DNA of 59,614 nucleotides, filler included, from Basidioascus undulatus (lineage: Eukaryota), in NCBI GenBank assembly GCA_000826855.1. It is 4 parts of 4 records of this genome, joined end to end, with 100 filler letters (N's around TTAATTAATTAA, not from the genome) between each part and the next. Parts side by side here need not be neighbours in the genome. Positions count along the whole stretch, not along the records: positions 44,781 to 59,614 come from JTLS01000692.1; 3 more parts are not named here. One strand, written 5' to 3'. A program made the translations under genes and the position numbers. The notes beneath the pieces are model-generated. The model did no database searches and had not been told where the DNA came from. It was given only the letters and a program-made list of their open reading frames with translations. Below, piece by piece: positions 52,288-55,086 of the stretch (position 1 is the first letter of the stretch; each line of letters begins with the position of its first letter).

Positions 52288-55086
52288 TTACAGCTCCAAA
52301 GTCCCGACCGCTCGCCCGAGCTCTCCCACAACCGCGTCCGCGCTCCTGCGCTCCTCCCAACGCCTGCGGAGCGCACCGACCTGCGGCATAGGGCGCTCGC
52401 CAAGCTTGCCGGTGCGCACGAATATCTGTGCATCGAGGAAGAATGAAAGGTCAAACAATGGATTGAGCATCGGACAAAATAAAACGCACGTCGCGGATGA
52501 AGAGCAGAAAGTCTGCCCATTTCAGGTCAGGGTTGGGCGCAAGACGGGAGACGAGGAGGTCGAGGCGGTAGAAGGCGTCGAAGTTGCCGAGCATGCTGAA
52601 TCCAAGACTGTATGAGTGATCAGGCTCGTCGAATACATTGACAAAGCAAACGCACGGATTTTCTGCCTGTTGCTGCGCCCAAGCAGCCATGATGATTTTC
52701 TCCGCCGGCCGAAGCTGTCGGAAACCGATAAATAAGATGTACAGCGTGTGGTCAGTCGGTGGAGTGCAACGCACATGTAGATGAGCAACACCCTGCCCCG
52801 GTTACAGCAAGCTCAGCGCCCGTTCCAAACATCAAGAAGGGAGGAAACAAAAGGCACCCGTTCGATCATCTCCCTTAACCACGCGTATGACGCCGGGTCG
52901 TCGTCCTCATGCAGCGTGTTCGGGTCAGGCACGACCCTGCGCAAGTGCCAGTCGACGAGGTCCGTCGCAGCGTCCAAAAGCGCCGGCCGTGGCCAATCGA
53001 CCGTCTTGAGTTCCACCGGCGCCATCGCAGCCCCCCGCACCGCCGGTTGTGGGGCCTTGCGCGACCGCTTGTCGCGCGGGAGCTGCTTGTCCTTCACCCG
53101 AAGATCGGGACCGCTCGCACTGGCATGCCGCCGGAGAGGACGCGCGGGCGTCGCGGCCTCAGCGTCGACGTCCGAGTCGAGCTCGGGCGACGATACGCGG
53201 ATGCGCCGTATGTTGCGCGAATACTCTGACCGCGGTGGGGGCGGTGAAGAACCGTCCGACTCGCGCTCAGTCTCGGACGCTATGTTGATGCGCTCGGTCG
53301 CTTGGACGAGCTCAGTCGTCATAGAGACTTTGAGAGGTGGACGGGTGGGAGAGGGCGCAAGTGCGCGCGGGTGGACGCGGATGACGAGGATGTTGACACG
53401 ATGAGAACGCGCCCGCTGAGCCCGCCATGCCCGGTCAAAACGACTACTATATCCGCACTCTGACAACGTACCTTTGAGGGGAGCAGCGTAAAGCGCAGGT
53501 GCGCATGCGCCTCCTCCAGGTGCTCCCGCAGTCGCTCCGTCGATCCGAAGTCTCCGTAGACGGGACAGCACCAGCAGCGGTGGCCGAGGAGGGCCGACGT
53601 CCACTGCGCGCCGTCGAAGCCGGGTACCTCCAAGTCGTACTTGACCACCGGCGTGCGAAGTTGCTCGGATACCTCGAGCAGCTCCTCGTAGTTCTCGAAC
53701 GCCGGGATGCGTGCCTGCTTCAGCCGCGCGGGCCCGACCGGCCCATCGAGGCGCCAGCGGAAGCGCGTAAACACGAGGTTGAGCGACGTCGTGAGAGGGG
53801 AGGACCAGCGCGATTCGGTCGCGTCCGGAGCCCAGGAGCCGGTTCCGGAGTTGAGAAGCGACAGCGTGTAAGACATCTCGGCGCTCGATGAACTCGTCAG
53901 GCTTATGCGGATGGATGCGGACGTTGGACGAGGGGAGGTGACGGAGTCGTGAACGGGAAGTACGAGGCAGACAGGAGGGTCGAAGAAGAGGTTGGCGTTC
54001 AGGCTTGTCCGCGTCGACACTGGAGCGAAGACTTCTCTGTTGTCGAGCGGCTTCTGAAGTTGGAGAATGTATTTCAGATGGCAGCAAGGCGGAGGTTGGA
54101 AAGCACGTTGCTTACTTTCTGGACGCTGACATGCACCTTCAAGATGTCTCCTTGACGGACAGGCACATGCGATCCAGTGCTCTCGAGCCCGTTGAGGTCA
54201 ATCTCGATCTGCCGCGAGCAACGGCTGTGTGTTCCCGTCGCAGTGTCAGCTCGCTTTTGCAAAAACGTTGTCCAAGGTCTATCAGCTCACCTTGTTTCAG
54301 CATTCGCCTCTTCCTCCTCCCGCCTCGCCAGCAACCCATCCAGAGACTCCTTCCTCCTAGCGGCCGGCGGCAGTGGAGCTCGACTCTGCGCGCCGTCGCG
54401 CCCATCACGGGCGGCGCGATAATTGCGGCTCAGGAAAGAGGGCAGAGCCCCGCGCCGCCTAGACGTGCCGAGGAGTGCATCGAGCGCGGGATGGAGGAAA
54501 TGCTTGATGTAGAGCTTCTGCGCCTCGGTATGCGGGTCGGATGACGGGGGAAGGGGAGGTGACCGTGCACGGCGTGGACGCTTCTTCGTCACAGTCGCCT
54601 CGTCAGAAGACCACGCGGACCCGTCAGACTGCGAGCACCTCCAGATTTCAGCAGCCCCAACAGGGATTGTGACAAGGAGCGCACCTCGTCGCTGTCTTCG
54701 TAACTGGGTTGCACCGCCGCCGTCATTCGCGCCCCTTTCCGCTTCCAAGGAGCGGTTTTTCTCGCCGCCTTTCCCGCCATCACCTTCAACCTCTGAGAGG
54801 GCAGGGACTTTTGCGGACTCGGATGGTCATCCGGTTTCTGCACGCTCAACGGCGCACCCGCCGCCTTGTGTGCAAGCGTCGTCGTCCGCCCCGCTGCATG
54901 GGCGCGGGGGCGCCTCGGCGTTGCGAGGGCGGGAGGACCCATCGTCTGGTCTTCGGGCGGTCGAAAGAAAGGACACTGGTGCGGTTCTCCGCCAACGCCG
55001 GCGCGAGTGACGATGTGGTCGTTCTGCTTGTACGAAGGGCGAAGGGGTGCGGGACGGGATCGAGGAGTCGCTTGGGCGGCCGTCAT
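52288..55086 (-). CDS. Divergent SUZ12-like (ZnB-like / C2H2 / VEFS-like) Polycomb PRC2 subunit candidate, multi-exon
   Basis: LYIKHFLHP...RRRGALPSFLSRNY (~54419-54514); VKYDL...T...CWCC...LREHLEEAHAHLRF (~53490-53650); EDDDPASYAWLREMIER|GVAHLH|LRPAEKIIMAAW (~52680-52910). Confidence 0.6.

Follow-up and report, generated by a model that had tools for sequence, protein, structure and literature searches.

SUZ12 is the scaffold that EZH2 requires for the methylation of lysine 27 of histone H3 (H3K27) in Polycomb repressive complex 2 (PRC2). The SUZ12 family is known from animals, from the fungi Neurospora and Fusarium and, under the names EMF2, VRN2 and FIS2, from plants, and it is represented in Pfam by the VEFS-Box (PF09733) and Zn_SUZ12 (PF23320) families. 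According to PMC10638273, the parts of SUZ12 follow each other in the order ZnB/WDB1, C2, Zn, (WDB2) and VEFS. This family is the system with which a gene on the minus strand at positions 55086 to 52288 of a stretch of DNA from the fungus Basidioascus undulatus (assembly GCA_000826855.1) is compared here. The whole stretch, called the window, has 59,614 nucleotides (nt) and joins parts of four records of the genome, the part with the gene coming from JTLS01000692.1. The gene product probably belongs to the SUZ12 family as a strongly diverged PRC2 scaffold subunit of the Bnd1 kind.

SUZ12 was listed for years as missing from basidiomycetes, and in Cryptococcus neoformans, described as being without SUZ12, the protein Bnd1 was found to be needed for all trimethylation of H3K27 (H3K27me3) and was considered a possible functional stand-in (PMC8788455 and PMC7348808). 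Bnd1 was first described (PMC7348808) as a protein without recognisable domains. The orthologue files of PMC10638273 have EED, EZH and RBBP entries for C. neoformans and no SUZ12 entry, and for Ustilago maydis they have RBBP only. In 2023, as reported in the same paper, Bnd1 was judged from HHpred and AlphaFold2 to be, most probably, a SUZ12 orthologue that is highly diverged, and the premise of an initial annotation of the present locus, that Cryptococcus has no canonical Suz12, is in this respect dated. A similar course was taken by MES-3 of Caenorhabditis elegans, a PRC2 subunit long held to be clade-specific and then recognised as a highly divergent SUZ12 orthologue (PMC9253717). MES-3 is an animal protein and is likened to the present one by description, as a precedent for divergence of SUZ12 beyond the reach of ordinary sequence searches. 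Divergent SUZ12 orthologues that are hard to detect are thus already established by MES-3 and Bnd1, and Zn_SUZ12 already marks some basidiomycete proteins. A survey of SUZ12 across basidiomycetes was not found in a literature search that left most subscription journals outside.

When the minus strand is spliced by hand at GT..AG boundaries, nine predicted exons and eight introns give a single open frame of 773 amino acids (aa), which begins with an ATG at 55086-55084 and ends with a TAA at 52290-52288. All eight predicted introns have GT..AG ends and lengths of 48-66 nt, and three of them have the donor hexamer GTGCGT in common. For intron 2 there are two acceptor candidates, of which only that at 54225 keeps the frame. 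The coordinates, the manual splicing and the 18-nt microexon of the initial annotation are all reproduced in this predicted model (Table 1). Some freedom remains in how the transcript is put together. An in-frame ATG upstream, near 55137, is an alternative start for exon 1. Intron 7 (52608-52655, minus strand) has 48 nt, is free of stop codons and is in frame, which means that its retention would add 16 residues and leave the protein unbroken. Skipping of the microexon would also keep the frame, but it would require one intron of 143 nt, compared with 48-66 nt for the others.

The composition of the locus varies with the predicted exon boundaries. Across the spliced coding frame, the GC content at third codon positions (GC3) is far higher than that at second positions (GC2), as given in Table 1, and GC3 is well over GC2 in seven of the nine exons; the signal is weak in exon 1 (GC3 69.4 versus GC2 60.4). 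The exons of at least 59 nt have GC contents of 57-68%, the 18-nt microexon has 44%, and the introns are AT-richer (Table 1). The excess of GC3 over GC2 and the AT-richer introns support coding, and the locus is, as judged from its sequence, a real and intron-rich fungal gene.

Three motifs were proposed in the initial annotation to follow each other in SUZ12 order, and they are found in the spliced protein at aa 173-204, 443-470 and 646-681. The second of them, CWCC..H..H..F, lies in exon 4 with a tyrosine 21 residues upstream. Such a C2H2-like pattern is rare by chance, as it occurs in 5 of 20,000 shuffles of the protein and in none of 253 decoy open reading frames (ORFs) from the window, with 41,025 aa in all. 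In a Pfam search with six raw ORF pieces, Zn_SUZ12 is the one relevant family; on the ORF of 292 aa in which exon 4 lies, it is the sole family at an expectation value (E) of 10 or less (E 0.026, 14.7 bits), and with in-frame pieces of the region it ranks first in all four cases (E 0.008, 0.069, 0.0058 and 0.011; 13.3-16.8 bits). The piece confined to the exon gives 13.3 bits (E 0.069) with a match at 53475-53585, and the pieces that read through intron 4 give 15.9-16.8 bits (E 0.0058-0.011). The family ranked second on the in-frame pieces is Response_reg (E 0.14-0.28), and no generic C2H2 family is listed by Pfam for the ORF or for any of these pieces. The Pfam E-values count a library of 24,736 families, and since Zn_SUZ12 had been named beforehand, it follows that the chance of such a match for this particular family is about 1e-6.

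A different comparison, with the ESM Atlas, leads to the same family. The three clusters closest to exon 4, which are taken as leads (0.88, 0.86 and 0.85), all have Zn_SUZ12 and/or VEFS-Box. The first of them is from plants, with Zn_SUZ12 in 96% and VEFS-Box in 30%, and has 187 of 256 features in common with exon 4; the second is mostly basidiomycete, with Zn_SUZ12 in 50%; the third is mostly ascomycete, with VEFS-Box in 20% and Zn_SUZ12 in 14%. A family or clan is common to ten of the ten best family-bearing matches for exon 4. When exon 4 is modelled by AlphaFold2 from its single sequence, the mean predicted local distance difference test score is 33.4 with no residue at 70 or above, and the model is unusable for comparison with a C2 fold.

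The third motif, EDDD..WLRE-x14-EK..M..W, begins in exon 5 and continues through the microexon into exon 7. It was compared with the SUZ12_VEFS profile of 126 nodes from the supplement of PMC10638273, which was transcribed numerically and has emission rows that sum to 0.997-1.003 after rounding. Against the spliced 773-aa protein, this published profile gives 4.7 bits (E 0.0016, Z=1), and its positions 21-57 align to aa 646-681 (window 52911 to 52679), that is, to the acid patch, WLRE and EK..M..W. Against the C-terminal 154 aa, the score rises to 7.5 bits (E 0.0002), with the alignment still at positions 21-57 of 126. The score of the spliced protein is matched in none of 5000 shuffles (maximum 3.9 bits) and in none of the 253 window decoy ORFs (maximum 2.2 bits), and the reversed protein scores -0.2 bits.

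A motif that is assembled by splicing may owe its score to the choice of splice sites, and the same choice was given to decoys in a free-splicing control. Here, all isoforms with zero to two introns of the form GT[AG]..[CT]AG and of 45-100 nt were enumerated, in the real region and likewise in 250 decoy regions taken from the ends of further long ORFs in the window, 225 of which gave scored peptides. The real region reaches 9.2 bits and the best of the 225 decoys 3.4 bits, a gap of 5.8 bits. Among the 15 isoforms enumerated for the region of exons 5-7, the one with the highest score is exactly the microexon form proposed in the initial annotation. Inclusion of the microexon raises the score of the whole protein from 0.9 to 4.7 bits and that of the short peptide from 5.2 to 9.2 bits, and the short peptide without the microexon, at 5.2 bits, is still over every free-splicing decoy. 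The isoform that reads through intron 7 has the top score with the VEFS profile, which is due solely to its shorter peptide.

The first motif, LYIKHFLHP..LPSFLSRNY, ends in PSFLSRNY (aa 197-204), which agrees with the junction P-x-F-L-x-R-x-[LY] of the animal, plant and protist SUZ12 sequences in PMC10638273; a related junction, LPFLHRNW, occurs in Neurospora. The pattern was written post hoc; 421 of 20,000 shuffled versions of the protein match it, as does one place in the 41,025 aa of decoys, and this likeness to the SUZ12 junction is weak evidence.

When these parts are placed along the protein, PSFLSRNY comes first (aa 197-204), then the finger (443-470) and last the VEFS core (646-681), which is the order known for SUZ12. 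In common with SUZ12 the protein has P-x-F-L-x-R-x-[LY] near the N-terminus, a beta-rich region, a single finger of the form C-x2-C...H-x4-H with a hydrophobic strand after it, and then, beyond a linker, an acid patch, WLRE and E-K-x2-M-x2-W; the spacing from W to EK is also similar, with 17 residues here and 18 in the animal sequences. The protein differs in the distance from the second Cys to the first His, which is 14 residues here and 12 in the SUZ12 finger, and in the segment between WLRE and EK, where the D-[DE]-F-x-D-V of the canonical VEFS is not present. With respect to Bnd1, the gene appears to encode a protein of that same kind, from a different basidiomycete lineage, a likeness that is one of description. 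The VEFS-based search of PMC10638273 missed Bnd1, whereas the present protein gives a nominal match to the same VEFS profile, and the VEFS core may be less diverged here than in Bnd1. Two separate regions, then, lead to the SUZ12 family, each by a method of its own and in the expected sequence, a short third motif also fits, and the product is on this basis read as probably a SUZ12-family protein. The tests behind this reading are weak but concordant, and SUZ12 is the only family that they indicate.

A number of results weigh against it. The Zn_SUZ12 scores, at most 16.8 bits, stay below the curated cut-off of 28 bits and do not amount to a Pfam-grade assignment; 3.5 bits of the score are owed to a read-through of 10 residues into intron 4; and when the entire exon 4 is submitted to Pfam as a single 194-aa query, Zn_SUZ12 is not listed. 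In the ESM Atlas, scores below 0.9 count as leads only, and the recognition value is 1854, compared with the 2300 reached by most known families. Of the 126 VEFS positions 37 are aligned, and the first 20 and the last 69, which include the YFHS..P part and the C-terminal two thirds, are left unaligned. The locus was, moreover, chosen for its VEFS motif, so that the P-value for VEFS is not blind and the decoys correct for this within one window only. Pfam VEFS-Box has no match on any contiguous unspliced exon piece, which is explained by the division of the VEFS region over exons 5-9. With the published ZnB profile of 30 nodes the score is -0.2 bits (E 0.074), the stretch that fits best is aa 747-753 and not 173-204, and 1591 of 5000 shuffles and 64 of the 156 scored decoys do equally well; the profile was built from animals, plants and protists and is almost intolerant of gaps, and the candidate has one residue more. 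All codons of the microexon end in A or T (GC3 0/6), and its composition looks more like that of an intron than like that of the other exons of the gene. Finally, PRC2 genes are missing from some basidiomycetes, among them U. maydis (PMC3814326).

The searches for relatives of exon 4 weigh on the same side. In a word-index search of longer proteins, 803 candidates were found and none had an E of 10 or less, and a phmmer search of 1.84 billion representatives gave no homologue. A scan of metagenomes gave 130 matches to the pattern, none of which was confirmed. With phmmer against PDB, exon 4 has four matches at E of 10 or less, exon 5 none and the last 69 aa of exon 5 two, and none of these is SUZ12; in the ESM Atlas, nothing usable is obtained with the C-terminal 62 aa of exon 5. 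No match to a SET or WD40 domain was obtained among the 133 ORFs of at least 140 aa scanned in the window. The blank homologue searches are accounted for by how poorly the organism is represented in protein collections, as can be seen from a GATA/AreA gene in the same window, whose two best relatives, proteins of Wallemia mellicola and Heliocybe sulcata, have identities of 34-38% only. From this distance it follows that no close relative of the organism is present in those collections. The same relatives are consistent with a basidiomycete origin, which falls short of proof.

What the initial annotation had claimed is upheld in part by this balance. A very divergent SUZ12 orthologue is favoured by Zn_SUZ12, by the Atlas, by the VEFS core and by the order of parts, with every match below curated thresholds. 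The assignment of the third motif to the VEFS box has the published profile and clean controls on its side and, on the other, the short alignment and the silence of Pfam VEFS-Box on the pieces. What is left of the first motif as a ZnB segment is its short PSFLSRNY junction pattern, as the published ZnB profile does not pick it.

Consider now what else the gene could be. The first alternative is a nuclear protein particular to this lineage, with one C2H2-like finger and low-complexity sequence, which is unrelated to SUZ12 and in which the VEFS-like and PSFLSRNY motifs have arisen by chance. It would agree with the fact that every profile match is sub-threshold, with the limited VEFS alignment and the failure of the ZnB profile, and with the lack of any homologue that ties the protein to a family. 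It would further agree with the post hoc nature of the PSFLSRNY pattern and its frequency in shuffles, the more so as such motifs had been searched for, and with a warning of the Atlas that ten concordant matches are obtained for one in three shuffled proteins as well. Such an alternative would, however, have to explain why two regions select the SUZ12 family in the correct order, with Zn_SUZ12 first of 24,736 families on four of four pieces, why the VEFS core scores over 5000 of 5000 shuffles and, by a wide margin, over 225 of 225 free-splicing decoys, and why no generic zinc-finger family is listed. For these reasons an unrelated protein is unlikely.

The second alternative accepts the descent from SUZ12 and supposes that the gene is no longer in the service of PRC2: either EZH2 and EED were lost and the protein has decayed or been repurposed, or the locus is a pseudogene whose apparently open frame depends on the choice of splice sites. 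The extreme divergence, with the C-terminal two thirds of VEFS unrecognisable, and the codon endings of the microexon would fit such a relic, and U. maydis, which keeps RBBP only among the PRC2 orthologue sets of PMC10638273 and is without PRC genes according to PMC3814326, would be a parallel. A relic is nevertheless hard to reconcile with a frame of 2322 nt that is open over eight canonical short introns, with the GC3 excess in seven of nine exons, which points to selection for translation, and with the retention of the key residues W, EK, M and W of the VEFS core, and it is judged quite improbable. That there is no gene at all, but a non-coding stretch or the plus-strand ORFs 52781-53404 and 53942-54544, is very improbable indeed: high-GC DNA does produce long ORFs on both strands and the coding signal of exon 1 is weak, but the plus-strand ORFs have no Pfam family, and the minus-strand model has consistent codon-position GC, AT-richer canonical introns and family-specific matches.

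If the gene product is taken, in line with the preferred reading, to be a SUZ12-family scaffold, its mode of action may be sketched by analogy with solved PRC2 structures. The C-terminal VEFS core, with its acid patch, WLRE and EK..M..W, would pack on EZH2 and EED and keep the methyltransferase active. The N-terminal half, with PSFLSRNY, the beta-rich region and the finger, would form a lobe for a WD40 subunit of the RBBP4/Msl1 type and for accessory factors, and the low-complexity linker of about 115 aa would connect the N-terminal and C-terminal halves. We also infer that EZH2 and EED are present in the organism, that they would be bound by the present protein and that H3K27 would be methylated. 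A more specific and tentative proposal, which is possible and on balance doubtful, is that the protein is intermediate between canonical SUZ12 and the 'domain-less' Bnd1 type and belongs to a basidiomycete lineage without a close sequenced relative. On this proposal, the ZnB/WDB1 junction would still be visible in it, along with the finger of SUZ12 and the core of VEFS.

If the SUZ12 reading is true, there is a second, independent basidiomycete relative of SUZ12 beside Bnd1, and facultative heterochromatin of the Polycomb type is suggested for a lineage of fungi that has been poorly sampled. Ideas on PRC2 evolution remain unchanged, because divergent SUZ12 orthologues such as MES-3 and Bnd1 are already accepted, and the find is useful and not surprising, since fungal SUZ12 proteins of such divergence have been described before. 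Its value lies in the unsampled lineage, in a VEFS core that is seemingly better kept than in Bnd1 and in a gene structure that would probably evade automatic annotation. For annotators, the locus would then exemplify a chromatin gene that calling by ORFs or by homology misses, on account of its eight short introns, its microexon and the lack of any detectable homologue. If the protein were in addition an intermediate form, a PRC2 with a SUZ12-derived scaffold would be ancestral in Basidiomycota, and the bridge sequence could make hidden SUZ12 orthologues findable across the phylum.

Table 1. Predicted exons of the SUZ12-like gene, in window positions, with the sequence features that each contains.
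Feature	Positions	Strand	Features
Whole gene	52288..55086	-	One open frame after splicing; GC3 73.8% versus GC2 53.0%; introns 42-59% GC
Exon 1, aa 1-134	54685..55086	-	Pro/Arg/Ala-rich low-complexity N-terminus; no Pfam family; weak coding signal
Exon 2, aa 135-246	54291..54628	-	Contains the ZnB/WDB1-like LYIKHFLHP..LPSFLSRNY, 54419-54514 (aa 173-204)
Exon 3, aa 247-283	54116..54224	-	Beta-rich region begins
Exon 4, aa 284-477	53472..54053	-	Beta-rich stretch, then single C-x2-C-x14-H-x4-H finger at 53493-53576
Exon 5, aa 478-663	52858..53415	-	Post-finger strand, long Ser/Arg/Pro/Asp-rich linker, WHL....P, acid patch EDDD, WLRE
Exon 6, 18-nt microexon, GVAHLH	52775..52792	-	CAG acceptor and GTGCGT donor on its flanks
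Exon 7, aa 670-689, LRPAEKIIMAAW	52656..52714	-	EK..M..W part of the VEFS core
Exon 8, aa 689-728	52490..52607	-	FLLFI at 52496-52510, by-eye likeness to VEFS F-[LM]-L-H-[LV]
Exon 9, aa 729-773, and stop codon	52288..52425	-	GC3 78.3%

Two pairings with VEFS were made by eye, FLLFIRDIF with F-L-L-H-L and WHL....P with YFHS....P; they are not aligned by HMMER and serve as leads only. The phmmer search with exon 4 also returned five matches at E of 0.001 or less, all of them multi-stretch matches of a Ser-rich strand region to repeat proteins of bacteria (with domains such as Calx-beta, Big_13 and Y_Y_Y), and they were rejected as spurious. The source of these matches to bacterial Ig-like repeats is the Ser/Thr-rich strand stretch at 53900-54000 on the minus strand (aa ~314-357, ..ASIRISLTSSSSAEMSYTLSLLNSGTGSW..), which is a trap for automatic annotation.

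Several other genes are recognisable in the window. The GATA/AreA gene (2201-6567, minus strand) consists of two long ORFs with a GATA zinc finger (E 1.2e-17) and an AreA GATA-like domain (E 8.4e-14), a combination suggestive of a transcription factor of the nitrogen-regulator type. A phosphoglucomutase gene extends over several ORFs at 16933-19143 on the minus strand, with PGM_PMM_I (E 1.2e-27), PGM_PMM_II (E 3.6e-14) and a PGM1 C-terminal domain (E 3.8e-37). A set of ordinary housekeeping genes, none of them a chromatin gene, comprises a GH18 chitinase (35842-36889, minus), a mitochondrial carrier (44733-45868, plus), a VPS9-domain protein (14009-14770, minus), RNase PH (22607-23119, plus), NDUFA12 (32328-32915, minus) and a 2-oxoacid dehydrogenase acyltransferase (43183-43776, plus). 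Directly upstream of the SUZ12-like gene, at 56783-58866 on the minus strand, lies a gene for a helicase of the DEAH type, with an HA2 winged-helix domain (E 9.5e-14) and weak matches to DEAD and AAA_22, and downstream of it, on the opposite strand at 50361-51524 (plus), there is a mitochondrial ribosomal protein L47 domain (E 7.7e-13).

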